Source: Nitrospirota bacterium (GTDB lineage: Bacteria; Nitrospirota; UBA9217). Taken from it: a stretch of DNA of 64,000 bases. The stretch's first letter is position 1. Every line of letters starts with the position of its first letter. This document shows, piece by piece, positions 19,829 to 63,151 of this stretch. The stretch lies in assembly GCA_963749655.1 (NCBI GenBank), contig CAVVOB010000022.1, forward strand, positions 64,001-128,000. Direction: 5' to 3'. The notes beneath the pieces were generated by a model, which did no database searches, was not told the DNA's origin, and saw only the letters and a list, made by a program, of their open reading frames with translations. The position numbers and the translations under genes are program-made.

Positions 19829-19888
19829 CCAAGGTTTAACGACTGCAAGAGCAGTTAACTACATTCCATAGATAGGAGGTTCAGAACA

Positions 19889-20326
19889 ATGCCGAGTTAT
19901 GTTATTACCGAGAAGTGTGACGGCTGCAAGGCGCAGGATAAGACTGCTTGCCAGTATATCTGCCCGAACGACCTCATGACCCTGAACAGGGACCTCATGA
20001 AGGCCTACAACCAGGAGCCGGATCAGTGCTGGGAGTGCTACAACTGCGTAAAGATCTGCCCGCAGCAGGCGATCGAAATCCGTGCTTACCAGGATTTCGC
20101 CCCCCTGGGTGCGAACGTTATCCCGATGCGGGGTACGGATTCCATCATGTGGACCATCAAGTTCCGCAACGGGATCCTGAAGCGTTTCAAGTTCCCGATC
20201 AGGACCACGGCTGAAGGCTCGGTCGATCCCTTCAAGGGCAAGCCTGAAGCAGATATGGCCAAGATCAAGCAGCCCGGATACTTCACCCATCATGGTGCAG
20301 GCAAGACCATGCCGGTGATCAAATAA
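19889..20326 (+). CDS. aprB: Adenylylsulfate reductase beta subunit
   Basis: CDGC...CQYICP and CWECYNCVKICP ferredoxin motifs, KRFKFPIRTT. Confidence 0.97.
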   Translation: MPSYVITEKCDGCKAQDKTACQYICPNDLMTLNRDLMKAYNQEPDQCWECYNCVKICPQQAIEIRAYQDFAPLGANVIPMRGTDSIMWTIKFRNGILKRFKFPIRTTAEGSVDPFKGKPEADMAKIKQPGYFTHHGAGKTMPVIK

Positions 20327-20332
20327 GGAGGA

Positions 20333-22378: not shown

Positions 22379-22391
22379 GAACGTGAACACC

Positions 22392-22420
22392 TCCGGGGAG
22401 GGGCAACCCTCCCCGGAATT
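22392..22420 (+). terminator. Stable hairpin after aprA (terminator or RNA stabiliser)
   Basis: TCCGGGGAGGG-GCAA-CCCTCCCCGGA stem with a GNRA loop. The U-tract is weak. Confidence 0.6.
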
Positions 22421-22547
22421 TATTGAAAATTGTAAAGTGGAGTTGTTTTTGTTCAACACATCGAACGAAGGTACTTTACAGTGTTCAATCGATATCAACT
22501 TCGACGTAACGTTTCAGTTTCACTGCCTTAAGGAGGAATAGATTATT

Positions 22548-23798
22548 ATGGCGGAAAATAAGTTGTTGGTTGTCGGCGGAGGCTTCAGCGGCCTCACGGC
22601 AGCAGTAGAAGCCGCGGAAGCAGGATCCGATGTCATTATCGTCGAAAAGAACCCCTATCTCGGCGGCCGGGTGACGCAGCTGAACAAGTACTTCTGGAAG
22701 ATGTGTCCCCCAAACTGCGGCCTCGAAATCCAGTATAAGAGGATCAAGAACAACGGCAAGGTGACGATCTATACCATGGCCGAGGTGGAAAAAGTGGCCG
22801 GGACCGAGGGCAACTTCGACGTCACGATCAAGACCACGCCCCGGTTCGTGAACGACAAGTGTACGGGCTGCAACAAATGCGCCGAAGCCTGCGATGTGGA
22901 GCGGTCGAACGATTTCGATTTCGGCATGAGCAAAACGAAAGCAGCTTACCTCCCGCACAACCAGGCATTTCCGCTGAAGTACGTCATCGACGCAAAAGCC
23001 TGCAAGGGAGCGTCCTGCGCCAAGTGTGTTGCCGCATGTAAGTACGATGCAATCCACCTCGACATGAAGACGGAGACCATAAACGTGAAGGTCGGCGCCG
23101 TGGTCATGGCAACGGGCTGGAACCCCTACGATGCGACCAGGATGGACAACCTCGGGTTCGGGAAAGTCCAGAACGTCGTTACGAACATGATGATGGAGCG
23201 TCTAGCAGCGCCGAACGGTCCCACGGCAGGCAAGATCGTACGGCCGTCGGACGGCAAGGAAGTGAAGAACATCGCCTTTGTGCAGTGCGCCGGTTCGCGC
23301 GACGAGAACCATCTCGCCCATTGTTCCTACATCTGCTGCCTGGCGTCGATCAAGCAGGCGACCTACGTGCGCGAGCTTTACCCCGATTCCAAGGCGAAGA
23401 TCTTCTATATCGATATGCGGACCCCCGGCCTCTATGAGAACCGGTTCTACACCAAGATCAAGGAAGACCAGAATGTGTCCTTCCTCAAGGGCAAAGTCGC
23501 CAAAGTGGAGCAGGGAGAGAACGGCGACGTGAAGGTGACCGCCGAGGACATTCACGGCGGCGGCAAGATAACCGAGACCTTCGATATGGTCGTGCTTGCC
23601 ACGGGGATGCAGCCCTCGACAGAGTCCTTCAAAGGTGCGGGAATTGTACCGACCGCTGACGGGTTCGTGGACCAGGCAACGCTCCCGAAGGGCATGTATG
23701 CGACCGGGACGCTCAAGACCCCCGTTGATGTGGCGCGGTCGGCCCAGGATGCCACCGGCGTGGTCATGAAAAGCATCCAGAGCTTGAGGAGGAAATAG
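22548..23798 (+). CDS. qmoA: QmoA (HdrA-like flavoprotein)
   Basis: VGGGFSG, KMCPPNCG, ferredoxin insert and QCAGSRD..CSYICC. Follows aprBA. Confidence 0.92.
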   Translation: MAENKLLVVGGGFSGLTAAVEAAEAGSDVIIVEKNPYLGGRVTQLNKYFWKMCPPNCGLEIQYKRIKNNGKVTIYTMAEVEKVAGTEGNFDVTIKTTPRFVNDKCTGCNKCAEACDVERSNDFDFGMSKTKAAYLPHNQAFPLKYVIDAKACKGASCAKCVAACKYDAIHLDMKTETINVKVGAVVMATGWNPYDATRMDNLGFGKVQNVVTNMMMERLAAPNGPTAGKIVRPSDGKEVKNIAFVQCAGSRDENHLAHCSYICCLASIKQATYVRELYPDSKAKIFYIDMRTPGLYENRFYTKIKEDQNVSFLKGKVAKVEQGENGDVKVTAEDIHGGGKITETFDMVVLATGMQPSTESFKGAGIVPTADGFVDQATLPKGMYATGTLKTPVDVARSAQDATGVVMKSIQSLRRK

Positions 23799-23800
23799 GG

Positions 23801-26037
23801 ATGGAGAAGAAATACTGCGTATATATCTGCAAAGGCTGCGGCATCAAGGATGCAATGGACGTCGAGAAGGTGTCCGGGGCGGCCAAAAAGGTGCAGAATT
23901 TCAAGTTTCATGATGCCCTGTGCAGCCCCGAAGGCGTGCAGCTGATCAAGGACGATATCGCAAAAGAGGGTGTCAATACGATCGTCATCGCCGCCTGTTC
24001 GCCGCGTGCCAAGGCAGCCGAATTCACGTTCCCCGGCGTCCTCACCGAGCGGGTCAACATCCGCGAGTTCGTGGCCTGGACCATGGAGCCGAATACGGAA
24101 GGAACGAACGATGCGGCCTATGACTACATTTCCATGGGTATCACGAAAGTTCAGAAGGCCGAATTGCCTGAGCCCAATATCCTGCCTGACCTGAACAGCA
24201 CGATTCTGGTCATCGGCGGCGGTATTGCCGGCATGACCGCGGCGCTTTCAGCTGCCGATGCGGGCCAGCAGGTCGTCCTTGTCGAGAAAGACGCCAAGCT
24301 CGGCGGGTTCGTGAACCAGCTCTATAAAAAGATCCCGACCGGCTCCTATATCAACAAGCCGCTGATCGTTGATACGGAGATCGAGAAGACCGTAAGCCAG
24401 GTCGAGAGCAACCCGAATATCAAAGTATACAAATCAACCACGGTATCAAAGACCGAGGGACAGCCGGGCCTGTACGACGTGACGCTTTCGAACGGCGAGA
24501 CGATGAAGATCGGCGCCATCGTCATGGCAACGGGCTGGAAGGCCTATGATGCGACCAAGCTCGACTACCTCGGCTACGGCAAGATGAAGAACGTGGTGAC
24601 GAACTTCGAGCTCGAGGAAATCGCGAAGAAAAATAACGGAAAACTCCTCCGCCCGTCCGACGGCAAGCCGGCCCTCAAAGTCGCCTTTATCCAGTGCGCC
24701 GGGCAGCGCGATCCGAATCACCTTCCCTACTGCTCCTCCATGTGCTGCGCCACCTCGCTCAAGCAGGCGCAGTATGTCCGTCAGAACGAGCGATGCCCTT
24801 GCCATGATCTTCTACAAGGACATCCGGACGCCCGGCAGGACCGAGCTCTACTACAAGGAAGCCCAGAACAATCCGGGTATCATGCTTTCGAAGGCGGACG
24901 TGACCGGCGTTTCCGATGCCGGCAACGGCAATATGTTCGTCGAGATGGAGAACACGCTCTTCGGCCTGAAGACCGGCGAGAAAGTGAAGGTCGAGGCAGA
25001 CCTCGTGGTGTTGGCGACGGGCATGGTCCCGACCACGCGTGCTCCCCAGGAATACGCCGACGGGCTCACCAAGGCGGCGGGCGGCGGCGATGAATCCAAG
25101 AAGAACTACCTCGAACAGACTCCCCAGCCCGATTACATCCTGAATCTCGGCTATCGCCAGGGGCCGGAAATCCCGACCCTCGAAGGAGCGTCGGGTTTCG
25201 CCGATTCGAACTTCATCTGCTTCCAGTACGAAACCCGCAGGACCGGCATCTACGCGGCCGGCGGCGTGCACCAGCCCATGAACATGGCGGAAGCCATGGA
25301 AGACGGGGCCGGCGCGGCTTTCAAGGCAATCCAGGCCATCGATCACGTATCCCGCGGTATCGCGGTCCATCCCCGCGCCTGGGATGTGACGTATCCTGAC
25401 CCGCTCCTCATCAAGTGCACGGCCTGCAAGCGGTGCACGGAAGAGTGCCCCTTCGGCGCCATCGACGAAGACGAAAAAGGCATCCCGAAATACAATCTCA
25501 ACCGCTGCCGGCGGTGCGGCACCTGCATGGGCGCCTGCCCCGAACGTATCGTTTCGTTCAAGGACTACAGCGTCGATATTGTCGGCTCCATGCTTAAGTC
25601 TGTGGAATACTCCGATGATGAGGACAAGCCGACGATCATCTGCCTGGTCTGCGAGAACGACTCCTACCCGGCGCTCGACACGGCGGCTATTGCCGGAAAG
25701 AAGATCGACCCGGCATTCCGGTTCATTTCCATGCGGTGCCTGGGCGGAATGAACTCTGGTGTGGGTTGCCGACGCGCTGTCCAAGGGCGCCGACGGTATG
25801 CTGCTTCTCGGTTGCAAGTACGGGGAGAACTATCAGTGCCACTTCGTCAAGGGGAGCGAACTCGCGAACACCCGCTTCAGCAAGGTCAGTGAGACTCTGA
25901 ACCGGCTCCAGCTCGAGTCCGAGCGCGTTCAGCTGATGCAGGTCGCCATCAACGAGTATGATAAACTGCCGGACATGCTCAATGACTTTGCTGCCAGGAT
26001 CAGGGAGATCGGGCCGAATCCGTTCAGGACCATGTAA
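23801..26037 (+). CDS. qmoB: QmoB (HdrA-like + ferredoxin + MvhD domain), frameshifts near 24788 and 25755
   Basis: Three overlapping ORFs (23801-25093, 24774-25892, 25759-26037) join into a complete QmoB: GGGIAG, QCAGQRD..CSSMCC, 2x[4Fe-4S], CENDSYP, GCKYG..YQCHF. Confidence 0.9.
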
Positions 26038-27956: not shown

Positions 27957-30040
27957 ATGAGTAACACGATTCTTTTTGCCCTCGTGTGCGGCGTTGCCGG
28001 CGTCATTTACGGCATCATGACCGCAATGTGGGTGAACAAGCAGGATTCAGGCAATCAGAAAATGATCGACATTTCCAATGCAGTGAAGGAAGGCGCTAAT
28101 GCGTTCCTGGCGCGCGAGTACAAGACAGTTGCAGTGGTCGCAGTGATTCTGCTTGTGGCCTGGCGCTCGTTCCCGCCCTCGGTATGTGGACAGCAGTCGG
28201 ATTCGTCATCGGCACGGTGGGTTCCGCCCTTGCCGGCTTCATCGGCATGTGGGTGTCGCTCCGCGCTAACGTTCGTACGGCAGCGGCAGCCAGCAAAGGC
28301 CTCCAGGCCGCGCTCAGCCTCGCGTTCAAGGGCGGCTCCGTGACCGGCATCATGGTCGTGGGCCTCGGCATCATCGGTCTTGCCGGTTTTTACTTCGTCG
28401 CTAAGACGGCTTGCTCCGCGAGCAGGTTCACACGCTCTGATCGGACTCGGCTTCGGCTGCTCGCTGATGAGCGTGTTCGCCCGTATCGCGGGCGGTATCT
28501 ACACCAAGGCCGCTGACGTGGGCGCCGACCTCGTGGGTAAGGTCGAGAAGAACATCCCCGAAGACGATCCGCGCAACCCCGCCGTGATCGCCGACAACGT
28601 GGGCGACAACGTGGGCGACTGTGCCGGTATGGCCGCTGACCTCTATGAGACCTACACGGTGACCCTCGTGGCCGCCATGCTTCTCGCCAAGACCGTGTTC
28701 GGTGCGGACAGCCCGTGGATCGAGTTTCCGCTCATGCTGGGCGGTGTTTCGATCATCGCTTCCATCGTGGGCACCTACTGCGTCAGACTCGGCAAGAACA
28801 ACTACATCATGGGCGCCCTGTATAAGGGATTGGCCGTTGCAGGCGTTATCGCGGCAGCTCGCGTTCTACTTTCGTGTCCAAGAGCTTTATCGCCGGCCTC
28901 GGCGACCAATGCCGGCGTGTTTCACGGCGAACACCGTGTTCTTCATCTCCCTCATCGGCCTTGCCTTGACCGGCCTGATCGTGTGGCTCACCGAGTACTT
29001 CACCGCTAAAGAGTATCCCCCGGTGCAGCACATCGCACAGGCGAGCCTCACCGGCCACGGCACGAACGTGATCGCCGGACTCGCAGTCAGCATGAAGTCC
29101 ACCGCACCGCCCGTGCTCGTGATCGTTGCCTCGATCCTGGGCGCCTACTGGCTCGGCGGCGGATTCTCCGGCCAGGCAGAACGCAGCATCCGGCGGCATC
29201 TTCGCCATCGCGCTTGCAGCAGTTTCCATGCTTTCCATGACCGGCATCGTCGTGGCCATCGACTCGTACGGCCCGATCACGGACAATGCGGGCGGCGTCG
29301 CTGAAATGGCTGGTCTCCCGAAAGAGATCCGCGATATCACGGACCCCCTCGATGCGGTCGGCAACACCACCAAGGCAGTGACCAAGGGCTATGCCATCGG
29401 TTCCGCAGCACTGGCAGCTTTGGTGCTGTTCTCGGAATATTCACGCTCCTTCACCGGCGGGGTTGTATCATTCGAACTTTCGAACCCCCTGGTTCTTTGC
29501 GGCTTGTTCATCGGCGGCATGCTCCCCTACTACTTCGGCGCGCTCCTTATGGAGTCCGTTGCTAAGGCTGCAGGCGGCGTGGTGGTGGAAGTTCGCAGAC
29601 AGTTTGCGGAGATCAAGGGCATCATGGAAGGCACCGGCAAGCCTGATTACGCAGCGTGCGTTGACATCGTGACCAAGGGCGCCATCAGCGAGATGATGAT
29701 CCCGGCGCTCCTTCCGGTCGTCGTGCCGGTGCTGGTGGGCCTCCTCCTGGGCAAAGAAGCCCTGGGCGGCGTGCTTATCGGCGCCATCGTGACCGGCCTG
29801 TTCCAGGCCATCGCCATGACCTCCGGCGGCGGCGCATGGGACAATGCCAAGAAGTCCTTCGAAGACGGCGTCACGGACAGCAAGGGCGTTGTGCACAAGA
29901 AGGGCAGCGACGGACACAAGGCTTCGGTCACGGGCGACACGGTCGGCGATCCTTACAAGGACACCGCAGGTCCGGCCATCAACCCGATGATCAAGGTCAT
30001 CAACATCGTGGCGCTCCTGATTGTTCCGTTGATCAAGTAA
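27957..30040 (+). CDS. hppA: Membrane-bound ion-translocating pyrophosphatase, K+-independent type (about four frameshifts)
   Basis: [48 protein letters not shown] and [14 protein letters not shown], spread over four to five frame segments. Confidence 0.93.
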
Positions 30041-32711: not shown

Positions 32712-34282
32712 TTGTCCGACATCCACAGCGAACGAATACTCATCCTCGACTTCGGTTCCCAATACACCCAGCTCATTGCGCGCCGGGTGCGCGAGGCCAA
32801 AGTCTATTGCGAAATCCTGCCTTATAATGCGGGCCTTGACAAGGTCAAGGCTTTCCGTCCCAAGGGCCTCATCCTGTCAGGAGGCCCTTCGAGCGTCTAC
32901 GACAGCGGCGCGCCGCTCATCGACCGAGCGCATCTCGATCTCGGCATCCCGGTCCTGGGCATCTGCTACGGCATGCAGCTTTTGACCCATGTGCTCGGCG
33001 GGACGGTGGCCAAATCGACCAAGCGCGAATACGGCAGGGCAGAGCTGAATCATTCACGAGAACGAAGGTCGTTTTCAAGGGAATCGGCGACGGGACGGGA
33101 TCACAACGCCAACTCGAAACTGTCGTATGGATGAGCCACGGCGACCGCATCGAGAAGATGCCCGAGGGTTTCCACGCTATCGCCCATACCGACAATTCGC
33201 CGACTGCCGCTATGGCGAACGAGCAGAGAAGGTTCTTCGGCGTCCAGTTCCACCCCGAGGTCGTTCATACGCCGCAGGGCGTCCAGATCCTGCGAAATTT
33301 CGTGTACGGGATCTGTAAATGTGAGCCGTCCTGGACCATGGCCTCCTTTGTGGAGTATTCCGTATCAGAGATTTGGAAAGCCGTCGGGGACAAACAGGCT
33401 GTCTGCGGCCTCTCGGGCGGTGTTGACTCGTCCGTGGCTGCCGTGCTGGTGCACAAGGCTATCGGCAAGCAGCTGACGTGCATTTTTGTCGACAACGGCG
33501 TCCTCAGGAAGAATGAAGCGGCATCGGTCCAGAACTCGTTCAAAAACATGGGGCTCAATCTCAAGTACGTGGACGCGTCCCGGGAATTCCTGTCCCGTCT
33601 CAAAGGCGTCGAGGACCCTGAGAAGAAGCGGAAGATCATCGGCAACACCTTCATCGAGGTCTTCGAGCGTGAGGCCCATGCGGTGGGCGGGGCCGAGTTC
33701 CTGGTCCAGGGCACGCTTTATCCCGATGTGATCGAAAGCGTGTCGTTCAAAGGGCCGTCGGCGGTCATCAAGTCGCATCACAACGTGGGCGGCCTGCCGG
33801 AAAAGATGAAACTGAAGCTTGTCGAGCCCCTGCGCGAGCTCTTCAAGGACGAGGTGCGCGCCATCGGGCGTGAGATGGAGATGCCCGACGACATTATCGA
33901 CCGCCAGCCCTTCCCGGGTCCGGGCCTTGCCATCCGCATCCTGGGCGAGGTGACCGAATCTCGTCTCGCCATTCTTCGCGAAGCAGACGCCATTGTCATT
34001 GAGGAGATCAAGAAGGCAGGCCTCTACAAGCAGATCTGGCAGTCCTTTGCCGTGCTGCTCCCCATCAAGACCGTGGGCGTCATGGGAGACGAACGGACTT
34101 ACGAGAACGTTGTCGCCATCCGCGCGGTCACGAGCCAGGACGGTATGACTGCGGACTGGGCGAAGGTCCCCTATGACCTGCTCGGCATCATGTCGAACCG
34201 CATCATCAATGAAGTTAAAGGCGTGAACCGCGTTTGCTTCGACATCTCGTCCAAGCCGCCGAGTACGATCGAATGGGAATAG
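32712..34282 (+). CDS. guaA: GMP synthase (glutamine-hydrolysing), frameshift near 33045-33070
   Basis: [41 protein letters not shown] and KPPSTIEWE. Confidence 0.96.
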
Positions 34283-52361: not shown

Positions 52362-54704
52362 ATGAAAGATCTTCCGATGTCCGAAGAACAACGGAACGCT
52401 GACCAGGCTTTGCAGATCCGCGCAGACCAGGTCAGACAACTTCACGAGAATGCGCCCCTCGGCATGATCGCGACGGTCGTTAACGCCGCGGCCCTGGCTT
52501 ACATTCTCAGGGACGTGGTCTCCCCTCAGCCCCTTGCCTTGTGGCTTGCCGGGCTGCTGCTTGTCACGGTGCTTCGCTGTTTCCTTGTATACCGGTTCCG
52601 CCGCCGGCCATTGTCTTCTTCAGAAACGGTCCGCTGGAGCCCGTCGTTTATCGCGGGCATGGCCCTGTCAGGCCTTGCCTGGGGCGCAGCCGGCGTCTTC
52701 CTCCTTCCCGCAGGTTCGTTGACCCACCAGGTTTTTATCGCCTTCGCTCTGGGCGGCATGGTCGCCGGCGCCGCAGGCACGTTTTCAGCCATCCGGAGCG
52801 CGTATCTGGCATACAGCATTCCGACGCTCGCCCCCCTGATCATCCGTTTTTTCGCCTTCGGCGACGAGATCCACGTCACCATGGGAGGGATGACCCTTCT
52901 CTTTGCGCTTCTCATCCATATTATGGCGCTGCGCGTACACAATATGTCCGTCCTGTCGCTCAAGCTGCGCTACGAAAACAGCAGCCTGGTGTCCTATCTG
53001 GCCTGTGCAAAGGAGCGTGCGGAGCAGCTGAATGAAAACCTCCGGGCCGAGATTGCCGAACGAACAAAGGCCGAGGAGTCCCTGCAAAAGCACCAGGACC
53101 ACCTGGAAGAAGTGGTGAAGGAGCGCACGGCTGAATGGGCCCAAGCCAACATTCGGCTCCAGGAGGAGATGGCGGCGCGCAATGTGGAGGAAGCCCTGCG
53201 CCGGTCAAGCGAGATTTATTTCCGGTCGCTCATTGAAAACGTCTCGGACCTCATCACCGTGCTGGACAGCGGCGCCAATATTCTCTTCGAGAGCCCGTCG
53301 ATCGAACGCCTGCTGGGATACCGTCAGGACGAGCTGGTCGGCACGAACGTCTTTTCGTTTCTCCATCCCGACGACCAATCGTCAGCCCGGGAGGCATTCG
53401 CCCGGATTGTCGCAACCCCCGGCAGCTCCGAGACGATCGAGATCCGGGTGCGCCACCAGAGCAGCGCATGGCGGATATTTGAATCGATCGGCAAAAGCAT
53501 TGTCGACGAGGCAGGGGCCGTGCGCATTGTCATCAATTCCCGGGACATTACGGACCGGAAGCGGATGGAAGAGGACCTCCTGAAGATCCAGAAGCTGGAA
53601 TCTCTCGGTACGCTCGCCGGCGGCATCGCTCATGATTTCAACAATATCATCTCGGGCATTACGGCCAATATCGAACTGGCCCGGATGCACGTGAACCGCG
53701 ACGATCTGCTCGCGACCATTCTCGAGAAGGCGGAGCAGGCGTCCGTACAGGCGCATGGCCTGACCCAGCAGCTTCTTACCTTTGCCCGCGGCGGCGGCCC
53801 GGTCAAGAAAACAATAAAAATTTCCGATCTGATCCGCGAAGCAGCGACCTTTGCCCTGCGGGGGGCTCCTTCCACCGCGACCTTTTCCCTCTCCGACGAT
53901 ATGCGTTCCGTCGAGGCGGATGCCGGGCAGCTTCGTCAGGTCATCCATAACATTGTAAGCAATGCCGATCAGGCCATGCCTCGGGGCGGGCAGATCCTGA
54001 TCTGCGGCAGGAACGTGACGATCGGGGAGGGCGCCAGCACGACTCTCGAGCACGGGGATTATGTCGAGGTGACCATTTCAGACCAGGGCATCGGCATTCC
54101 CCCGGAGCATGTTACGAAAATCTTCGACCCCTATTTTACGACGAAGCAGCGGGGGAGCGGTCTGGGCCTCGCTACGGCCTATTCTATCGTTAAAAAGCAC
54201 AGCGGCAGCATCACCGTGTCGTCCGAGCTGGGCAGGGGAACAACAATATCGTTCTATCTTCCGGCCTCTGCGCAGGCGGCTGCCGCTTCGGCTCCCCCGG
54301 GCAGCCCCCTGGTACAGGGAAAGGGAAGAATCCTGATCATGGACGATGAGGCCGTCGTTCGAGACGCCGCGGGGAGGACCCTGGAGAGCGCGGGCTACGA
54401 AGTGGAGTCAGCGCAGGAAGGGACCGAAGCAATAGCGCTCTATTGCCGTGCGCGCGAGTCCGGCAGGCCCTTCGACGTGGTTATCATGGACCTTACCGTA
54501 CCCGGCGGCGTCGGCGGGAAGGACGCCGTAAAAAAACTGCTTGAGATAGATCCCGCGGCAAAGGCAATCGTCTCAAGCGGATATTCTCAAGACCCGGTTA
54601 TGGCGAACTACCGCGACTACGGCTTTCTGGCGGTCATCTCAAAACCCTTCTTTGTTCGTGAAATGACCGAGATCGTCGCGAAGGTCGTGGCGATGAAGGC
54701 CTGA
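52362..54704 (+). CDS. Membrane-bound PAS hybrid sensor histidine kinase
   Basis: TM region, coiled coil, [24 protein letters not shown] and receiver IMDLTVPG. Confidence 0.93.
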   Translation: MKDLPMSEEQRNADQALQIRADQVRQLHENAPLGMIATVVNAAALAYILRDVVSPQPLALWLAGLLLVTVLRCFLVYRFRRRPLSSSETVRWSPSFIAGMALSGLAWGAAGVFLLPAGSLTHQVFIAFALGGMVAGAAGTFSAIRSAYLAYSIPTLAPLIIRFFAFGDEIHVTMGGMTLLFALLIHIMALRVHNMSVLSLKLRYENSSLVSYLACAKERAEQLNENLRAEIAERTKAEESLQKHQDHLEEVVKERTAEWAQANIRLQEEMAARNVEEALRRSSEIYFRSLIENVSDLITVLDSGANILFESPSIERLLGYRQDELVGTNVFSFLHPDDQSSAREAFARIVATPGSSETIEIRVRHQSSAWRIFESIGKSIVDEAGAVRIVINSRDITDRKRMEEDLLKIQKLESLGTLAGGIAHDFNNIISGITANIELARMHVNRDDLLATILEKAEQASVQAHGLTQQLLTFARGGGPVKKTIKISDLIREAATFALRGAPSTATFSLSDDMRSVEADAGQLRQVIHNIVSNADQAMPRGGQILICGRNVTIGEGASTTLEHGDYVEVTISDQGIGIPPEHVTKIFDPYFTTKQRGSGLGLATAYSIVKKHSGSITVSSELGRGTTISFYLPASAQAAAASAPPGSPLVQGKGRILIMDDEAVVRDAAGRTLESAGYEVESAQEGTEAIALYCRARESGRPFDVVIMDLTVPGGVGGKDAVKKLLEIDPAAKAIVSSGYSQDPVMANYRDYGFLAVISKPFFVREMTEIVAKVVAMKA

Positions 54705-54736: not shown

Positions 54737-54767
54737 AAAAAAAGGCGCCTTTTCAGGCGCCTTTTTT
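54737..54767. terminator. Bidirectional intrinsic terminator
   Basis: A-tract, GGCGCCT-TTTC-AGGCGCC stem, T-tract, between convergent genes. Confidence 0.9.
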
Positions 54768-54786: not shown

Positions 54787-56994
54787 CTACCATGTTTCCG
54801 TTCCGTGGCAGCTGGGACTGCAGGTCGCGCCGTTGAAGTTGACGGAGCTCTTTATCGTCGCCGAAGCGGTCGCTTCCGATATCGGCGCAGTCAGAGACGT
54901 AAAGTGGCTCCCTGCCAGCTTCGTCGTATCGTGGCAGTCAGTGCACGCCCTTTGTTCACTGTAAACGTGACGCCGATGCTGGCCCGAGTAGTAGCTGTTG
55001 TTCTCCGGGCTGCCTGATGAGGAGCCGAGGACGTGGCATGCGGTGCACTGCGAGTTCACATCGATGGTTCCGGTGAGCCAGGACGGAGTGGAACCCGGTG
55101 TCGACTGGGGGGGATTCTGACCGGCCTGGGTCGATGTCTGCGTTCTTGATCCTCCGTGGCAGGAGATGTTCGAGCAGGTGTAGGTCGATGCATTGTACGA
55201 GGCCGTTCCTGATTTCGCATTATAGGTCGCGTCGAGGATCACATCAACGACATTGTTGAAATGATATGCTGTGCCCGAACCTGCGCCCTGATGGCAGGTG
55301 CCGCAGACAACAGACGAGTTGACGTTTGCATGAGGAGCGTGGCTGCCGGCAACGTTGGGGAAGGTTGTCCCGGACGGCGGCGTCCCGTGGCAGGACGCGC
55401 AGTCGCTTGTATTGATCGGCCAGGAGTGGCACGAAGCACATGACGGGCCGCTCGAGGAGACGCCGGTCAGATTTGTTCCATGACAATAGACGTTCGAACA
55501 GGAAGTCGTTCCGTTTGCGTAGGCATAGGCACTGTGGTTCCGCTGTACATCGGGGTACCAGCTGAGAAGGTGGACCTTGGTCTGGTCCTGCATATGGCAG
55601 CTCTTGCAGGCCACATGGGTGCCGCCGCCAAGGTAGTCCGTGCCGTGGCATTTCTGGCAGACCGTGTTGTCTGCAAGCGCCGATGTCTTATGGTCCGCGA
55701 CGACCCAAGCTGCCGCAGGATGGTCCAGGCCCGGTCCATTATGGCAGCTGTAACAACTCGTGCCGGTTGTTCCTCCCTGGTAGTCCGAGCCGTGGCAGGT
55801 TTTGCAGACGGAGAAATCCTGTTCCGCACTGACGCCGTGTTGTGTCGGGTCGGACCAGCCGGCAGGGTGGCCGACCTGAGCATGACAGAGCGTGCTGTTG
55901 AAACACCCGGGAGCGGTCCCTGCTGCCGCGGGCGGAGAAGGCTGCACCGAGGAGTTTGCGCCGTTCGTATGACAGAGCGCGCAGACCGTGGCGTTTCCTT
56001 CATTCGTGGTCGTATGGGTATAGGTGCCGTCGCGCCAGGGCTTGGGCGGATGGGGCGCGTTCACGCCGTGGCAGGAGGAACAGGCCGTGTTGGCAATGCC
56101 GCCGGAGAAGTCGGTGCCGTGGCACTCCTGGCATGAAGCAAAGCCGTTTGCCTGGGATTTTGCGCTGGCTCCGTGCTGGGCCGGGTCGGACCAGCCCGCA
56201 GCGTGGCCCACCGTTCCGTGGCAGAGCGTGTTGTTAAAACATCCGGGAGCGGTCCTTGCTGCCGCGGCCGGAGAAGGCTGCACCGAGGAGTTCGCGCCGT
56301 TCGTATGGCAGAGCGCGCAGACCGTGGCGTTCCCTTCATTCGTGGTCGTATGGGTATAGGTGCTGTCGCGCCAGGGCGCGGCCGGATGGGGCGCGTTCAC
56401 GCCGTGGCAGGAGGAACAGGCCGTGTTGGCAATGCCGCCGGAGAAGTCGGTGCCGTGGCACTCCTGGCATGAAGCAAAGCCGTTTGCCTGGGATTTTGCG
56501 CTGGCGCCGTGCTGGGCCGGGTCGGACCAGCCCGCAGCGTGGCCCACTGTCCCGTGGCAGAGCGTGTTGTTGAAACATCCGGGAGCGGTCCCTGCTGCCG
56601 CGGCCGGAGAAGGCTGCACCGAGGAATTCGCGCCGTTCGTATGGCAGAGCGCGCAGATCGAGGCATTCCCTTCGTCTGTCGATGTGTGCGTGTACGTGCT
56701 GCTGTCGCGCCAGGGCTTGGGCGGATGGGGCGCATTCACGCCGTGGCAGGAAGAACAGGCCGTATCGGCCATGCCGCCGGAGAAGTCGGAGCCATGGCAC
56801 TCCTGGCATGAAGAAAAGCCGTCGGCTTTCTTGGCCGCAGCGCCATGGGTACCTGCGCCGGACCAGCCTGCCGCATGGCGGCCCGTTGCGGGATCGATGA
56901 CCCTGTCTTTGCTTGCCGTGCTGCACGCCGCAGCGAGCATGATCAGGCCCGCACAGGACATGATGAGAACAACTATCCTCGTTCTGGAAAACAT
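54787..56994 (-). CDS. Multiheme c-type cytochrome lipoprotein (CxxCH / CxxxxCH type)
   Basis: Lipobox LAAAC. I count 18 CxxCH, 3 CX5CH, 2 CX4CH and 1 CX3CH in 735 aa. Confidence 0.92.
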   Translation of the reverse strand: MFSRTRIVVLIMSCAGLIMLAAACSTASKDRVIDPATGRHAAGWSGAGTHGAAAKKADGFSSCQECHGSDFSGGMADTACSSCHGVNAPHPPKPWRDSSTYTHTSTDEGNASICALCHTNGANSSVQPSPAAAAGTAPGCFNNTLCHGTVGHAAGWSDPAQHGASAKSQANGFASCQECHGTDFSGGIANTACSSCHGVNAPHPAAPWRDSTYTHTTTNEGNATVCALCHTNGANSSVQPSPAAAARTAPGCFNNTLCHGTVGHAAGWSDPAQHGASAKSQANGFASCQECHGTDFSGGIANTACSSCHGVNAPHPPKPWRDGTYTHTTTNEGNATVCALCHTNGANSSVQPSPPAAAGTAPGCFNSTLCHAQVGHPAGWSDPTQHGVSAEQDFSVCKTCHGSDYQGGTTGTSCYSCHNGPGLDHPAAAWVVADHKTSALADNTVCQKCHGTDYLGGGTHVACKSCHMQDQTKVHLLSWYPDVQRNHSAYAYANGTTSCSNVYCHGTNLTGVSSSGPSCASCHSWPINTSDCASCHGTPPSGTTFPNVAGSHAPHANVNSSVVCGTCHQGAGSGTAYHFNNVVDVILDATYNAKSGTASYNASTYTCSNISCHGGSRTQTSTQAGQNPPQSTPGSTPSWLTGTIDVNSQCTACHVLGSSSGSPENNSYYSGQHRRHVYSEQRACTDCHDTTKLAGSHFTSLTAPISEATASATIKSSVNFNGATCSPSCHGTETW
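55860..56870 (-). repeat. Three tandem ~336-bp (112-aa) intragenic repeats
   Basis: The unit H.AGWS..CQECH..CSSCH..CALCH..CFNNTLCH recurs with near-identical DNA at a 336-bp period. Boundaries approximate. Confidence 0.9.
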
Positions 56995-57075
56995 ACGTTC
57001 TGGAACCTCTCTCTTTTTTTTGGGTTTTCAGGGGGTACTACTTAAGTTAGGATGAAAACTGTCCCGATTTTAATT

Positions 57076-57104
57076 ATCGTAACGCTCTCACGCATGGCCG
57101 TCAA
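57076..57104 (-). promoter_or_regulatory. Sigma70-type promoter for the cytochrome gene
   Basis: Minus strand TTGACG, 17 nt, TACGAT. Confidence 0.55.
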
Positions 57105-57325
57105 TAGCTAATTGTGATTTGAACGTCGATTTTTGGCCGAAAGGATTACGGCTTCAGGTCCGGTCCGTTTTCATTGTTCGGGAAAATATGTACGTCAGGA
57201 AACAGATGAGAAAAGACTATTCTGCTTCGGCGGGTACATTTTAACGAGAGTTGAAGTCCTTTCGGGATGGGGGCGCTCTGTGGCTGCGAGAAAGGTGATT
57301 GGATGCCGGTTTTATCCGGGAAATG

Positions 57326-57361
57326 CTTCGCGTCTCCGTCCGGGAGCCCGGAGACGCGAAG
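57326..57361 (-). terminator. Strong hairpin after the Ig-repeat gene
   Basis: CTTCGCGTCTCCG...CGGAGACGCGAAG 13-bp stem with only a short U-tract. Confidence 0.5.
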
Positions 57362-57382
57362 TGGGATCATCATTCACTCCGA

Positions 57383-59362
57383 CTACAATGTTTTCCATAC
57401 CTCGTTCGAATAGCTGCTTTCCTGGCCGGAAATGTCAAGGTCGGTCACGGCGAAATAATACGTTCCCGCAGAGAGGTTCAAAGTATAGGTGACTACCGAC
57501 ACCCCGGGATTGGGAACGTCCACGGTTTTGTTGTAGCTCAGAGACGACGTTCCATAGTAGATCCGGTAGCTGCTGACGGCTGTCAGCGAACTCAGGGTTG
57601 ACCCGTCCACATAGGTCGTCGGAGCGTCCCAGGTCAGCGTCAGCGCACTGGTTCCTGCCACGACGGTGAGACCGGTGGTTCCTGAAACGCCGCCTGATGT
57701 CGCCGTGATAGAGGCGGATCCGGCAGCTACTCCGGAAGCAAGTCCCTTGGAACCTGAAGCGTTGCTGATGGTCGCAACGCCGGTGCTGGAAGAGCTCCAA
57801 GTCGCTGAGTTCGTCAGGACCTGCGTAGAACCGTCCGTATACGCGCCCGTTGCAACGAACTGCTGTGTCGTTCCCGCGCCGATGCTTGGATTGGACGGTG
57901 TGACGGCGATGGAGACCAGGGTCGCCGAGGTCACCGCGAGAGTGGTCGAGCCCAAGACGCTGCCCGACGTTGCCGTTATCGTGGTTGAGCCGACTGCCAC
58001 GCTGGTTGCCGCGCCCCGGGCGCCTGTTGCATTGCTGATGGTTGCAATACCGGTGCTGGAAGAGCTCCAGGTCACCGAATTCGTCAGTACCTGCGTAGAA
58101 CCGTCGGTGTAGGTGCCGGTGGCTGCGAACTGCTGTGCCGTTCCCTTGGCGATGCTGGGATTGGACGGCGTCACCGCGATGGATATGAGTGTCGCCGAGG
58201 TCACCGTGAGGGCGGCTGAACCAGAAATGCTGCCCGACGATGCCGCGACTGTGGTTGAGCCGACAGCCAGGGAAGTTGCCGCGCCCTGAGAACCTGCAGC
58301 ATTGCTGACGGTCGCAACTGCCTGATTTGAAGATTCCCAAGCTACCGAGTTCGTAAGGGTCTGCGTGGACCCGTCGGAGTAGGTGCCAATGGCAACGAAC
58401 TGCTGTGCTGTTCCCTTGGCGATGCTGGGGCTGGACGGTGTGACAGCGATGGAGACCAGGGTCGCCGAGGTCACCGTGAGGGTGGTCGAGCCTGAGATGC
58501 CGCCTGATGTTGCCGAGATCGTGGTGGAGCCGACTGCCACAGATGTTACTGCGCCCCGGGAACCTGAATCGTTGCTGATCGATGCAACGCCGGTGCTGGA
58601 AGAGCTCCACGACACGCCTTCCGTCAGATCCTGCACCGAGTTGTCCGAGAAAGTGCCGGTGGCGATAAACTGCTGGGCGGTTCCCTTGGCAATACTGGGA
58701 TTGGTCGGTGTGACCGAGATGGAGGCCAGGGTCACCGAGGTTACTGTCAGGGTGGCCGAGGCCGAGATATTTTCGGACGCTGCCGTGATCGTTGTTGAAC
58801 CGGCGCTCACAGCCGTGGCCAGTCCGCTGCTGACCGTTGCTACGGCCTGGCTCGAAGAGGTCCATACTGCTGATGCCGTCAAGTCCTGCGTCGTACCGTC
58901 TGAAAAAGTGCCGACGGCCGTAAATCTCTGCGTCGTACCCTTGGCGATGGATCCCCCTGTGGGAGTGACTGCGATGGAGACCAGCGTTGCATCGGTTACG
59001 CTGACCGTGGTATCAGCCTCAATGTCGCCCGAGGAGGCCTTGATGGTGGCAGAGCCGGATTTTTTTCCCTTTACGTGGCCCGGGCTGTCGATCTCGGCTG
59101 TCGATGAGTCGGAGGAAGTCCAGGTGACGTACTTGGTCAGGTCCCGCGTCGACTTGTCGGAGTACACGCCCGTGGCAACGAACTGTTGATCGGTGTTTTT
59201 TGCCAACGCCGCATTGACCGGGGTAATAGAAATGGAGGCGAGCGTCGCTCCGTCCCCGGTTCCCTTTGACGGCCCCTGGGGGCTGCCGGCGCCGCACGCT
59301 GCCAGGCCTGCTGCAATCAGCGAAACCGTCAGTAGAAAGAAGCCCGTCCTTGACTTGATCAT
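57383..59362 (-). CDS. Surface lipoprotein with six Big_2 (Lig-like) Ig repeats and a C-terminal FN3-like domain
   Basis: Lipobox LAAC, six L.SI.VTP..SIAKGT.QQF.A.G.YSDGS..LT..V.WSSS units, C-terminal LTWDAP..YRIYYG..YYFAVT..ESSYSNEV. GAGGAGG Shine-Dalgarno before the ATG at 59362. Confidence 0.9.
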   Translation of the reverse strand: MIKSRTGFFLLTVSLIAAGLAACGAGSPQGPSKGTGDGATLASISITPVNAALAKNTDQQFVATGVYSDKSTRDLTKYVTWTSSDSSTAEIDSPGHVKGKKSGSATIKASSGDIEADTTVSVTDATLVSIAVTPTGGSIAKGTTQRFTAVGTFSDGTTQDLTASAVWTSSSQAVATVSSGLATAVSAGSTTITAASENISASATLTVTSVTLASISVTPTNPSIAKGTAQQFIATGTFSDNSVQDLTEGVSWSSSSTGVASISNDSGSRGAVTSVAVGSTTISATSGGISGSTTLTVTSATLVSIAVTPSSPSIAKGTAQQFVAIGTYSDGSTQTLTNSVAWESSNQAVATVSNAAGSQGAATSLAVGSTTVAASSGSISGSAALTVTSATLISIAVTPSNPSIAKGTAQQFAATGTYTDGSTQVLTNSVTWSSSSTGIATISNATGARGAATSVAVGSTTITATSGSVLGSTTLAVTSATLVSIAVTPSNPSIGAGTTQQFVATGAYTDGSTQVLTNSATWSSSSTGVATISNASGSKGLASGVAAGSASITATSGGVSGTTGLTVVAGTSALTLTWDAPTTYVDGSTLSSLTAVSSYRIYYGTSSLSYNKTVDVPNPGVSVVTYTLNLSAGTYYFAVTDLDISGQESSYSNEVWKTL

Positions 59363-59406
59363 GTTGTTTTCCTCCTCTGCTAGAGCGATTAATAAACCGG
59401 TGATCA

Positions 59407-59498
59407 TCTCTGGCGGCTCGGCGGACATTGGAGCTTGATGCTCGTTAGTCCCGTTGCTCTGCGTCCCAGGGTTTCCCCTGGTTTGCTCTGAGCAGAGA
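59407..59498 (-). ncRNA. GEMM-I (c-di-GMP-I family) riboswitch, A20 variant predicted to bind 3',3'-cGAMP
   Basis: Minus strand UCUCUG CUCAG A GCAAACC AGGG GAAA CCCU GG GACGC AGAGC AACGGGACUAAC GAGC AUCAA GCUC CAAUGUCCGCCGAGCCG C CAGAGA. P1, P2 with GAAA tetraloop, P3 and the GACGC-A core are all present. Confidence 0.88.
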
Positions 59499-59563
59499 AG
59501 GTCTCGAACATGGATTTCAGCGCCGGCTATCACCAGGGCCCATGCCCTTCATTCATTGGCCGC

Positions 59564-59631
59564 ATGTTACTCGAAGCGCGAAATAGAGTCTGTGACCATG
59601 GATACAATAAATAGTGTGATCTCGATCACAC
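59564..59631 (-). promoter_or_regulatory. CRP/FNR-family class II promoter with two operator sites
   Basis: Consensus TGTGA-TCTCGA-TCACA at 59615-59630, a second site TGTGA-CCATGG-ATACA at 59591-59606, and a minus-strand -10 TAACAT at 59569-59564. Confidence 0.7.
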
Positions 59632-59842: not shown

Positions 59843-59871
59843 TTGACAAGGACAGGTTGATAGTTTATTAT
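59843..59871 (+). promoter_or_regulatory. Sigma70 promoter
   Basis: TTGACA, 17 nt, TATTAT upstream of the yhaM-like gene. Confidence 0.75.
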
Positions 59872-59899: not shown

Positions 59900-60962
59900 A
59901 TGCAGACGATAGCATCCCTGAAAGAAGGAGACTGGGTAGAGGAGATCTACTCTCGTCACGTCGAAGCAGGTGTCGACCGCCAAGAACGGCGTTACCTATC
60001 TGTCCATCAAGCTCTCGGATAAAACGGGGGAGATCGACGGCAGATTGTGGGACAATGCCGACGAAGTGGCCGGAAAATTCGAACGTGAGGATTTCGTCCG
60101 CATCAAGGGGATGGCGTCGAACTACCAGGGCTCCATGCAGATCAAGATGAAGACACTGGAGAAGGTCGATGATTCCCGCGTAGACATCGCCAATTTTCTG
60201 GAGTGTTCGCCGCGCAGGCCCGAAGACATGGTGCAGGAACTCCGCGCGGTCGCCGCATCGCTCAAGGAAGGATATCTGCAGCAGCTGATGAACGCTTTTC
60301 TTTCAGACAACGCCTTCATGGAATCGTTCAAACGATCGCCCGCGGCCAAGACGCTTCATCATAATTATATCGGCGGCCTGCTTGAACACGTTCTGGAGCT
60401 CATCAATCTTTCCCGGGACGTGGCGAAGCATTTCCCCTCGATCAATGTCGATCTGCTGACGGTCGGGTCCTTCCTTCATGACATCGGCAAAGTGCGCGAA
60501 CTGACGGTCAAGAAATCGATCGGCTATACGACGGAAGGAAGGCTGATCGGCCATATCTCCCTGGGATATGAAATGATCGTCGAAAAGATCAAGGCCCTTC
60601 CGGGATTCCCGCAGGAACTGACCATGCTGCTTAAACACATCATCCTCTCCCATCACGGCGAGTACGAGTTCGGTTCGCCCAAGCGCCCGAAGATCCAGGA
60701 GGCGATCGTCATCAATTACCTCGACGACCTTGCGGCAAAGATCAACAATTTCAAAACGACCCTGCAAAAGGAAAACGTGGCAGAGGGCGAGTGGACGGGG
60801 TACAGCAAAATGCACGACCGGTACCTCTACCGGCCGATGAACTCCGACGCACCGGAAGGAGAGTCGCCCGCGATCGATGAAAAAAAGCCGGTCGCTGCCA
60901 GGGCGAAAAGGGGCAACCTCGGGGGTCCGGCGGAAGTATCCGGCAAGTTACCCCTGGACTGA
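59900..60962 (+). CDS. YhaM/CBF1-family OB-fold + HD 3'-5' exoribonuclease (frameshift shortly after 59940)
   Basis: AGGAG Shine-Dalgarno, ATG 59900 MQTIASLKEGDWVEEIY, then the other frame LVTSKQVSTAKNG..L.DKTG, PAAKTLHH..GGLLEH, LHDIGK, SHHG..EFGSP. Confidence 0.88.
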
Positions 60963-62338: not shown

Positions 62339-62496
62339 TTTGCCGCAGTGAACACGACGGGGTATTTTTAGGGTATGTCATGTGTCGAGTGAGTTGATTA
62401 TTCTTATTTTTTAATGTTTTGCCTTTGCCCACCCATCTTTTTATCCTTGCCATTTTTCTTCGATTCTGGTATATACTAATTAACATCATAAGATAG

Positions 62497-62673
62497 TCCC
62501 CTGCTTTGCGCGTGATGGATATAACTTGTTCCTCGTGAAAAAAAAATAACGGGAGCTGAAATGTGAAAAGGGTGTGCATGCCCAGATTAGACTGGGAAGC
62601 CTGAACTTTTCACCGAGGCACCCACCTGGTAAATACCAGGAATCAAGTCTATCTACACGGCAAAAGCGGGGGA
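62497..62673 (+). ncRNA. ssrS: 6S RNA
   Basis: About 177-nt long hairpin with complementary ends (TCCCCTGCTTT...AAAGCGGGGGA) and a central A-rich bubble. It lies downstream of zapA, its usual position, with TTGCCA...TATACT promoter elements upstream. Confidence 0.85.
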
Positions 62674-63151
62674 TTTTTTTACTCCCTGATTTTTGCACAA
62701 TTGTGTATAGCAACTCATGGCGTACCTGGCCATGATGCCTCAAATAGAGTGAATCAGCGCTAGCCAGCCAGAAGGGAGCAGTCAGTTTTAAGGAAGGCTC
62801 CGGCGCTTGTGATAGTGTAAATGTAACAGCGGAAGAGGAGCACAAGGATGACAGGATCATCCAAGGGCTCCTTCCCGCGCGAAGATTGATTACCAGTAGG
62901 GCAACGTATTGATGCCATGGGGAAATTTACTGTTGTACCATATAAGTACCATGAGGGAACGGGATTGAATTCACCGGGGGAGCAGTACTATCCAGCGCAG
63001 CTGAACTTTGGACAGGGAAACTCCCTTAAAAATAAACCGGTTGCCCCGCGCCTTCTCATCATCACCCCAGGGCCGAGCTTGCCTGATCCGGTCTGACCCC
63101 CTTCGCCCCCTATCACAGGTAGTCCGCGTAAGCCCTCCCGACGTATTTACC

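Follow-up and report, generated by a model that had tools for sequence, protein, structure and literature searches.

In a stretch of 64,000 nucleotides (64 kb) from a contig assigned to Nitrospirota, CAVVOB010000022.1, hereafter the window, a gene for an immunoglobulin (Ig)-repeat lipoprotein is followed on the minus strand by a gene for a multiheme c-type cytochrome. The lipoprotein, which is adhesin-like and built of Big_2 domains, appears to be controlled by a cyclic-dinucleotide riboswitch that would act as a translational ON switch, probably with both cyclic di-GMP (c-di-GMP) and cyclic GMP-AMP (cGAMP) as ligands, behind a promoter dependent on a CRP-family regulator; the cytochrome gene would form a unit of its own. 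A probability of roughly 0.6 is given to this reading. Two neighbouring transcription units, rather than a single proven operon, most likely make up the region. A first-pass annotation had described it as a single locus for attachment and electron transfer under second-messenger control, consisting of CRP/FNR sites, a GEMM-I riboswitch with an A at position 20 (A20), an Ig-repeat surface lipoprotein, a multiheme lipoprotein and a shared terminator. All of these parts were recovered by the present analysis, and the doubts concern how far they belong together and which ligand is sensed.

The aptamer and the proposed leader switch

The aptamer lies at 59409..59497 on the minus strand, where the Rfam family c-di-GMP-I (GEMM-I, RF01051) matches with 59.3 bits (gathering score 35) and an E value of 4.7e-9. 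The match is full-length (model positions 1-87 of 87), and the first hairpin of the aptamer has a GAAA tetraloop. Nearly all highly conserved consensus positions are kept, the exceptions being one A-to-G change in the junction after the first helix and a change at model position 11 (window position 59487), where the RF01051 consensus has G and the window has A. From the alignments, we take model position 11 to be the equivalent of G20 in the Vc2 aptamer. No second GEMM-I element was found by Rfam in the window, even at E values up to 1. The 3' end of the aptamer is located 46 nt before the ATG at 59362, on the same strand.

A leader of 181 nt was folded, and its minimum free energy (MFE) of -64.9 kcal/mol was compared with that of shuffled sequences (-47.5 +/- 4.0 kcal/mol), giving a z of -4.3, with none of 200 shuffles folding as well. 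In the MFE structure the 5' strand of the aptamer is engaged in a 16-bp helix with one bulge, whose 3' partner (59371..59386, minus strand) contains the entire Shine-Dalgarno (SD) sequence GAGGAGG (59377..59371), and an outer CAUGUU/AACAUG helix covers the start codon. The switching strand, placed at 59485..59512 (minus strand) by the MFE fold and by inverted repeats, includes the 5' half of helix P1, the A at model position 11 and the first pair of the pocket, and it can alternatively form P1 with 59412..59402. Both pairings are found among the inverted repeats of the leader, one joining 59491-59512 to 59360-59381 (I1) and the other joining 59493-59503 to 59402-59412 (I4). When the Rfam aptamer and P1 were enforced, the fold had an energy of -49.9 kcal/mol and left five of the seven SD bases in nothing but a weak local hairpin, no better than in shuffles.

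Since the sequestering fold and the aptamer fold are mutually exclusive, ligand binding should free the ribosome-binding site. The terminator scan gave no terminator-like site after the aptamer on the minus strand, which points to control at translation, and the leader thus appears to be a translational ON switch. In such a mechanism, without ligand the 5' strand of the aptamer (59512..59485) would pair with 59386..59360 and bury both the SD sequence and the AUG; with ligand bound, P1 and the pocket would hold the 5' strand, so that the ribosome-binding site is left free and the lipoprotein, with its Big_2 and FN3-like domains, can be translated. This ON switch would probably work kinetically, during transcription.

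The lipoprotein gene

The gene behind this leader (57383..59362, minus strand) encodes a protein of 659 aa with a signal peptide, six Big_2 domains (Pfam, E 1.4e-66) and a C-terminal FN3-like domain. It starts at ATG 59362, directly behind the SD sequence GAGGAGG, and stops at 57383. A longer open reading frame (ORF) from GTG 59533 was considered and rejected as the gene, as it would translate the aptamer and lacks the SD sequence and signal peptide that belong to ATG 59362. As read from the translation, the lipobox L-A-A-C (residues 20-23) closes the signal peptide. In a search of the PDB sequences, the Ig domains matched the Ig-like domains of Leptospira LigA/LigB and a teneurin-like protein. 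The C-terminal portion of about 95 aa resembles fn3 clusters by language-model features (0.92, to be taken as a lead only), and Pfam gave no match in the C-terminal 100 aa, even at an E value of 10. A protein search with the Big_2 protein was also attempted for finding orthologs and was of no use, because matches to the repeats dominate.

These features make a surface lipoprotein of adhesin type the most likely identity of the protein, its location and adhesin role being predicted from the domain content and the lipobox. In other bacteria, c-di-GMP ON riboswitches are known before adhesin or pilus genes. The window would share with them the coupling of a second messenger of surface life to an attachment protein, whereas the hosts differ and the aptamer class differs in part.

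The predicted promoter region

Upstream of the aptamer, at 59615..59630, there is an exact CRP-type palindrome, TGTGA-N6-TCACA. One such site was found in comparison with 0.01 expected, one of 100 shuffles reached it, and it is the sole site with at most one mismatch in the 64 kb. The inverted repeat around it is perfect over 8+2+8 nt (59614..59631). It is situated 118 nt upstream of the aptamer, within a divergent intergenic region of 436 nt. A second, weaker CRP-like site with two mismatches is found at 59591..59606, its centre 24 bp from that of the exact site. Sites with two mismatches occur in the window at the background rate (17 found, 19.1 expected), and therefore only the adjacency of this one to the exact site is worthy of attention.

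Between the palindrome and the aptamer, a consensus scan of the minus strand gave no promoter of sigma-70 type, which would fit an activator-dependent promoter. The hexamer TAACAT (59564..59569, minus strand) was read from the sequence as a candidate -10 element. With this guess, the weaker site would be placed at about -41.5, the exact site at about -65.5 and the start of transcription at about 59557; the class II-like geometry of the CRP-like site depends on the guessed -10. The first unit would then consist of a promoter dependent on a CRP/FNR-family regulator, driving an mRNA with a predicted leader of about 195 nt that carries the GEMM-I aptamer.

The regulator itself was sought among the window proteins by a Pfam scan. 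It covered 46 ORFs out of the 72 that reach 180 aa, the other 26 being excluded as overlapping better candidates, and no cNMP-binding or HTH_Crp protein was found among the 46. There is likewise no CRP-type site with at most one mismatch ahead of sat or aprA in the window. The palindrome had also been listed by the terminator scan as an intrinsic terminator, a reading that was set aside, as there is no gene end upstream of the palindrome on the strand concerned.

The palindrome can be compared with the CRP/HcpR-type operator consensus TTGTGA-N6-TCACAA, an HcpR-type signal described in Desulfovibrio (PMC545781). The core palindrome of these operators of sulfate reducers is identical to that of the window, and both hosts are sulfate-reducing anaerobes; at the flanks the 18-nt consensus has T/A, whereas the window site has G/C (PMC545781). 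Given the identical core, the effector could be something other than cAMP. On the other side of the intergenic region, a promoter-like TTGACA-17-TATTAT (11 of 12 matches; 59843..59871, plus strand) serves the divergent yhaM-like gene for an OB-fold/HD protein (59970..60962). It is about 250 nt from the palindrome and is for this reason probably not under its control.

The cytochrome gene and its surroundings

The stop codon of the lipoprotein gene at 57383 is separated by 388 nt from the cytochrome gene. A GC-rich hairpin of 13 bp (57326..57361, minus strand) begins 22 nt after this stop and is followed by only three U; the segment 57385..57300 folds at -33.3 kcal/mol (z -2.9), and the hairpin is possibly a weak terminator or one that stabilises the RNA. 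Further on, a promoter-like TTGACG-17-TACGAT (57076..57104, minus strand; 9 of 12 matches) is placed 82 nt upstream of the cytochrome start codon, in a scanned region where four promoter-like sites were found and 1.6 were expected. The first-pass annotation had itself cautioned that a hairpin and a separate promoter lie between the two genes, and this caution is well founded.

The cytochrome gene (54787..56994, minus strand) encodes 735 aa with at least 21 heme motifs (18 CxxCH, 2 CxxxxCH and 1 CxxxCH). It belongs to the CxxxxCH/CxxCH family (the TIGR01904/PF09698 group), as the model TIGR01904 ("CxxxxCH/CxxCH domain c-type cytochrome") reaches 41.4 bits, above its cut-off of 27, and the homologs bear this family name. 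Cys24 is invariant in all 22 aligned homologs, which fits a lipoprotein, and the protein is a probable one. Within the gene, a tandem repeat of 336 bp (55829..56822; 2.9 copies, 91% matches) points to a recent duplication of a heme module of 112 aa, and the homologs range from about 600 to 960 aa, so the number of heme modules varies. No match to the cytochrome was found among PDB sequences at E values up to 0.01.

The gene ends at a bidirectional intrinsic terminator (54737..54767) made of A6, a 6-bp GC stem extended by A-U pairs, and U7; its 86-nt segment folds at -33.7 kcal/mol (z -5.3). The terminator is common to the cytochrome gene and to a convergent gene for a hybrid histidine kinase (52362..54704). 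The second unit would then be served by a promoter-like site of its own and closed by this strong bidirectional terminator, and it may receive read-through from the first.

Linkage of the two genes in relatives

Whether the lipoprotein and the cytochrome travel together was examined through homologs of the cytochrome. An alignment of the window cytochrome with 21 homologs was scanned against genome contigs, 215 stretches were matched, 187 of these were relatives, and the best 80 were studied as loci, numbered from L001. A Big_2 coding sequence, searched for by tblastn with the Big_2 protein, was present in only two of the 80, namely L034, where it lies 5 kb upstream and on the other strand, and L009, where it is located downstream of the cytochrome homolog. 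Among the 65 loci with at least 3 kb of upstream sequence, none had Big_2 upstream on the same strand as the homolog. The yhaM-like and ftsY neighbours were in none of the 80 loci, and hence no locus is syntenic with the window. The closest homolog (66%, in L001) starts 38 nt from a contig end and so is uninformative on the upstream gene. Of the eight closest loci inspected, five (L003, L006, L007, L008 and L010) have just upstream an ORF that is on the opposite strand or overlaps the start of the homolog; in L002 and L004 the homolog is preceded by a same-strand ORF of 159 aa. As a separate remark, cytochrome repeats such as that of the window gene may break assemblies of metagenome-assembled genomes (MAGs), as at the start of L001.

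The loci were also searched for riboswitches. Rfam was run on 40 of the 80, namely 24 labelled Nitrospirota, 14 of Geobacterales type, L005 and L009; the other 40 were covered only by two covariance models of our own, R1 (from the window aptamer) and R2 (Geobacterales-type), by which aptamers of canonical type were possibly missed. In the 24 Nitrospirota-labelled loci (411,626 bases) no GEMM-I element reached the Rfam gathering score, nor did any in L005 or L009, and three of the 14 Geobacterales-type loci contained GEMM-I, with four aptamers in total. A loose regular expression for the GEMM-I core and R1, built from the window aptamer alone, had returned nothing in the 80 loci; these negatives were discarded as worthless because four aptamers that escaped both were afterwards recovered by Rfam.

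In the loci examined, no Nitrospirota example of the association of riboswitch, Ig-repeat protein and multiheme cytochrome was seen. The proposals that the two genes form one co-regulated locus and that the riboswitch is linked to the cytochrome thus received no support from the synteny check and from the Rfam run, respectively.

Ligand choice and a possible source of cGAMP

In GEMM-I aptamers, one ligand-contact position (G20 in Vc2, A14 in Gs1761) pairs with one base of the ligand, and an A at the G20 position marks the cGAMP-binding GEMM-Ib members (PMC6140456, PMC6456294). This mark is graded in its effect. Position 20 was described as "a selectivity factor rather than a hard filter" (PMC9262584), and the published A20 RNAs extend from about 1200-1600-fold cGAMP-selective ones in Geobacter to the c-di-GMP-preferring Cbe 1-2 (PMC6456294, PMC6140456). 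The G20A mutant of Vc2, from V. cholerae, binds c-di-GMP at 53 nM and cGAMP at 120 nM, and the natural A20 aptamer Cbe 1-2 of Clostridium beijerinckii binds them at 30 and 463 nM, respectively; the tight binding of c-di-GMP by A20 RNAs (30-53 nM) is achieved via a protonated adenine, and bispecificity of such aptamers is described in the same source as widespread (PMC6140456).

Except for A20, the core of the window aptamer is canonical, with GC at model positions 12-13 and GACGC at 33-37 (the GC/GC pair and GAC). The four Geobacterales aptamers fetched (two in L013, one in L026 and one in L069) all have A at model position 11, and in those read or aligned, from L013 and L026, CU/GG replaces the GC/GC pair and GGC replaces GAC (GGCGG at 33-37). 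The window aptamer has neither feature of this Geobacterales-type core (CU/GG at 12-13/36-37, GGC at 33-35), a criterion that is empirical, drawn from four aptamers and unpublished. In addition, R2, which was made from the Geobacterales aptamers, did not find the window aptamer at E values up to 1. The comparison of cores is based on two Rfam alignments, MAFFT being unable to align the window aptamer with those of Geobacterales. As far as these alignments reach, the window aptamer is not derived from the Geobacter lineage, and its A20 arose in a canonical core.

The nearest published parallels are therefore Vc2 G20A and Cbe 1-2, which, like the window aptamer, carry a single G-to-A change at the ligand contact in an otherwise standard c-di-GMP-I; their affinities were measured, whereas the window aptamer is likened to them through Rfam consensus positions only (PMC6140456). 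As A20 in a canonical background was bispecific in the published RNAs, the sequence is compatible with either ligand. The ligand would be a 3',3' cyclic dinucleotide with G at one position, and by analogy the aptamer most likely binds both c-di-GMP and cGAMP, the ligand in vivo depending on what the cell makes.

No GGDEF motif occurs in any frame of the 64-kb window, which is part of a contig of 213,397 bases, and Pfam gave no GGDEF, CD-NTase or CRP-family protein in the 46 ORFs scanned. A motif scan of the 80 loci returned three GGDEF domains, one of which, in L019, has Ser at the position where diguanylate cyclases have Asp, together with GGDEF. It is part of a GAF-GGDEF protein (19381..21618 of L019), encoded about 7.5 kb downstream of the cytochrome homolog in a MAG labelled "uncultured Nitrospira sp.". 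Among solved structures, the L019 protein is by a wide margin closest to a Ser-type "response receiver sensor diguanylate cyclase" fused to endolysin, which scores 170 bits, compared with at most 109.4 bits for canonical cyclases; we take this structure to be a construct of Geobacter GacA. Ser at that position together with GGDEF is the Hypr signature (PMC6456294), and Myxococcus GacB, also of GAF-GGDEF architecture, is activated by cAMP (bioRxiv 10.1101/600031). The G+C content of L019 is 46%, against 57% in the window, which indicates a different lineage. L019 is thus evidence only for the occurrence of Hypr-type enzymes under the label Nitrospirota, and not for the presence of one in the window's genome. 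Directly after the GAF-GGDEF gene of L019, a small-GTPase-like protein of 382 aa (Arf/Ras family match) is encoded.

An unlikely though reasonable alternative is that the element is an ordinary c-di-GMP riboswitch in a cell that makes no cGAMP, where A20 would lower the affinity for c-di-GMP from picomolar to nanomolar and so raise the threshold for expression of a biofilm-type adhesin, the cytochrome being unrelated. The best Rfam family is indeed c-di-GMP-I and the core is canonical, A20 RNAs bind c-di-GMP in the nanomolar range given above, and the Big_2 and cytochrome genes are not syntenic in relatives. Against this, A at position 20 is the published signature of cGAMP binders (PMC6140456, PMC6456294), a Hypr-type GGDEF is encoded in at least one Nitrospirota-labelled MAG, and only 64 kb of the genome were examined. 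The first-pass annotation had proposed that a CRP-family signal at transcription is integrated with cGAMP at translation. A CRP-type operator sequence and a probable translational cyclic-dinucleotide riboswitch are both there; the specificity for cGAMP is what could not be upheld, as A20 permits it and the canonical core is of the bispecific kind.

Parallels in Geobacter

Cytochromes and surface proteins are under the control of cGAMP riboswitches in Geobacter, where the GEMM-Ib regulon includes, for example, the tandem-riboswitch operon GSU2885-2882 (OmcAHG) and pgcA (PMC6456294). Among the Geobacterales-type loci studied here, L013 has two A20 aptamers just downstream of the cytochrome homolog, followed by an 884-aa protein with NHL and Ig-like repeats and then by a 942-aa CxxxxCH cytochrome; its arrangement would resemble a Geobacter operon of the GSU2885-2882 type. 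The L013 segment 12900..13460 consists of two near-identical tandem modules, each with a promoter-like repeat, an A20 GEMM-I element and a hairpin with a T-run. In the corresponding position L069 carries a single aptamer. In L026, one aptamer with a hairpin and T-run is followed by a 426-aa protein without Pfam match (a putative barrel protein), an ORF of 157 aa that is perhaps a small cytochrome, and a 972-aa homolog of the window cytochrome; the L013 counterpart of the 157-aa ORF gives weak cytochrome matches below the cut-off.

The order of riboswitch, Ig-repeat surface protein and multiheme cytochrome is therefore a real Geobacter theme, and the window parallels it. What is shared is a GEMM-I fold with A at the G20 equivalent, the ON logic, and the layout in which the aptamer precedes a secreted Ig-like repeat protein and then a large multiheme cytochrome of the CxxxxCH family. 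The differences are several. The switches of L013 and L026 look transcriptional, with a hairpin and T-run behind each aptamer, whereas the window aptamer would act on the SD sequence and AUG; the L013 protein combines NHL with Ig of Glucodextran_B type, whereas the window protein has Big_2, and the two are not orthologs; the window cytochrome matches the downstream cytochrome of L013 only weakly (38 bits); and the window host is Nitrospirota rather than a Geobacter-type bacterium. The Geobacter-like programme proposed earlier is accordingly matched in its layout, as in L013, and not in its proteins, nor is the association repeated in the Nitrospirota loci.

The fullest form of that proposal is a cGAMP-selective, GEMM-Ib-like aptamer at the head of one operon of lipoprotein and cytochrome, closed by the shared terminator and gated by a CRP-family signal, in a programme for surface contact and extracellular electron transfer (EET) as in Geobacter. 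It is supported by the A at the G20-equivalent position, by the control of cytochromes and surface proteins through Geobacter cGAMP riboswitches (PMC6456294), by the same order of parts in L013 and the L026 aptamer heading a cluster that ends in a cytochrome homolog, by the Ser-type GAF-GGDEF of the Nitrospirota-labelled L019 and by the lack of a good U tract after the hairpin between the genes. It is nevertheless considered improbable: the core of the aptamer is canonical, unlike that of Geobacterales, and escapes R2; A20 in such a background is bispecific or even c-di-GMP-preferring (PMC6140456); neither Big_2 in the required place nor a GEMM-I element was seen in the relatives described above; the window has no GGDEF and L019 belongs to a different lineage; and a translational riboswitch on the first gene does not by itself regulate the second.

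Evidence that tempers the proposed reading

The reading preferred here, a riboswitch of probable dual ligand choice acting on the lipoprotein gene, with the cytochrome apart, has to be held against several observations that speak against it. Two non-canonical pairs (A-C and A-A) stand at the base of the second aptamer helix and could weaken binding. The sequestering (OFF) fold is favoured over the aptamer fold by 15 kcal/mol, so the switch must act kinetically during transcription, or else it might be nearly always OFF. The switch is moreover deduced from a single leader sequence. At the promoter, the start of transcription is a guess, and the CRP-like site could serve another regulator of the family, for instance one of HcpR type. 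Between the genes, the hairpin has a poor U tract and was not called by the terminator scan, so that read-through into the cytochrome gene is quite possible; this would restore the operon of the first-pass annotation. L026, as its sequence suggests, is an example of the cytochrome family of the window under GEMM-I control in Geobacter. Finally, the Hypr-type GGDEF in one Nitrospirota-labelled MAG makes cGAMP as the true ligand "not far-fetched".

The first of these points also bear on the idea that the aptamer is a decaying or non-regulating relic, with expression of the lipoprotein set only by the CRP-type promoter. The non-canonical pairs and the greater stability of the OFF fold would agree with decay, and the aptamer is known from one leader. 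On the other hand, the Rfam score exceeds the gathering score by 24 bits, the match is full-length and keeps nearly all highly conserved positions, and without a switch it is difficult to account for a 5' strand that is complementary over 16 bp to the SD region, with further pairing across the AUG. A relic is thus very improbable.

Host and other features of the window

The host is, by its marker genes, an uncultured sulfate-reducing lineage of Nitrospirota, outside Geobacter. The aspartyl-tRNA synthetase encoded in the window is 84-91% identical to 119 other proteins among the matches listed, and organism names are attached to seven of the 119, six of them "Nitrospirae/Nitrospirota bacterium" MAGs and one labelled Betaproteobacteria. 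A cluster for sulfate activation and reduction was recognised by family models at 18587..25892 (plus strand), with sat (sulfate adenylyltransferase, 525 bits against a cut-off of 387), aprA (913 bits against 642) and then genes for HdrA-like proteins of Qmo type. Taken together, the relatives of the synthetase, sat and aprA confirm that the bacterium is, as first proposed, a sulfur-cycling one outside Geobacter.

Several genes of the window are broken. The gene for a membrane pyrophosphatase (27957..30040, plus strand) is broken into four or more pieces that lie in three reading frames, an in-frame stop separating the first from the second, and the pieces cover profile positions 3-69, 160-316, 327-410 and 406-688; it is either a pseudogene or the product of indel errors in the assembly. 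The QmoB-like gene of HdrA type (23801..25892, plus strand) is apparently divided between two ORFs that overlap and differ in frame (profile positions 3-230 and 524-689), and in the GMP synthase ORF (33131..34282, plus strand) only the end of the amidotransferase domain remains. These three genes suggest several frameshifts in the contig, possibly from sequencing indels. A 6S RNA (Rfam RF00013, 100.6 bits) is located at 62495..62676 on the plus strand, downstream of an ftsY-like gene and a small ORF.

Significance

Riboswitches of the GEMM-I class before adhesins, pili and cytochromes are already well known, and A20 is the published mark of the cGAMP-binding members; the locus therefore adds no new kind of system. 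What it does is to bring to an uncultured lineage of sulfate-reducing Nitrospirota an aptamer that joins A20 to a platform for translational ON control. In the full-text searches made here, nothing relevant was found that links cGAMP, Hypr GGDEF or riboswitches with Nitrospirota or Thermodesulfovibrio, nor on a riboswitch, c-di-GMP and multiheme proteins together.

A more speculative picture, to which little probability is given, is that sulfate-reducing Nitrospirota have a cGAMP pathway of their own, in which a GacB-like GAF-Hypr-GGDEF enzyme makes cGAMP, independently arisen A20 aptamers read it, and the output is attachment and perhaps EET through the neighbouring cytochrome. If this were true, and if the CRP-type site and the GAF domain were both responsive to cAMP, the locus would be a feed-forward gate, with cAMP acting at transcription and cAMP-dependent cGAMP at translation.

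Because its A20 stands in a canonical core and not in one of Geobacterales type, the RNA is a natural test of how far A20 alone shifts the choice of ligand. Together with the Ser-type GGDEF of L019, one RNA and two ligands would offer a cheap test of whether Hypr-cGAMP signalling extends beyond the former Deltaproteobacteria, into Nitrospirota.

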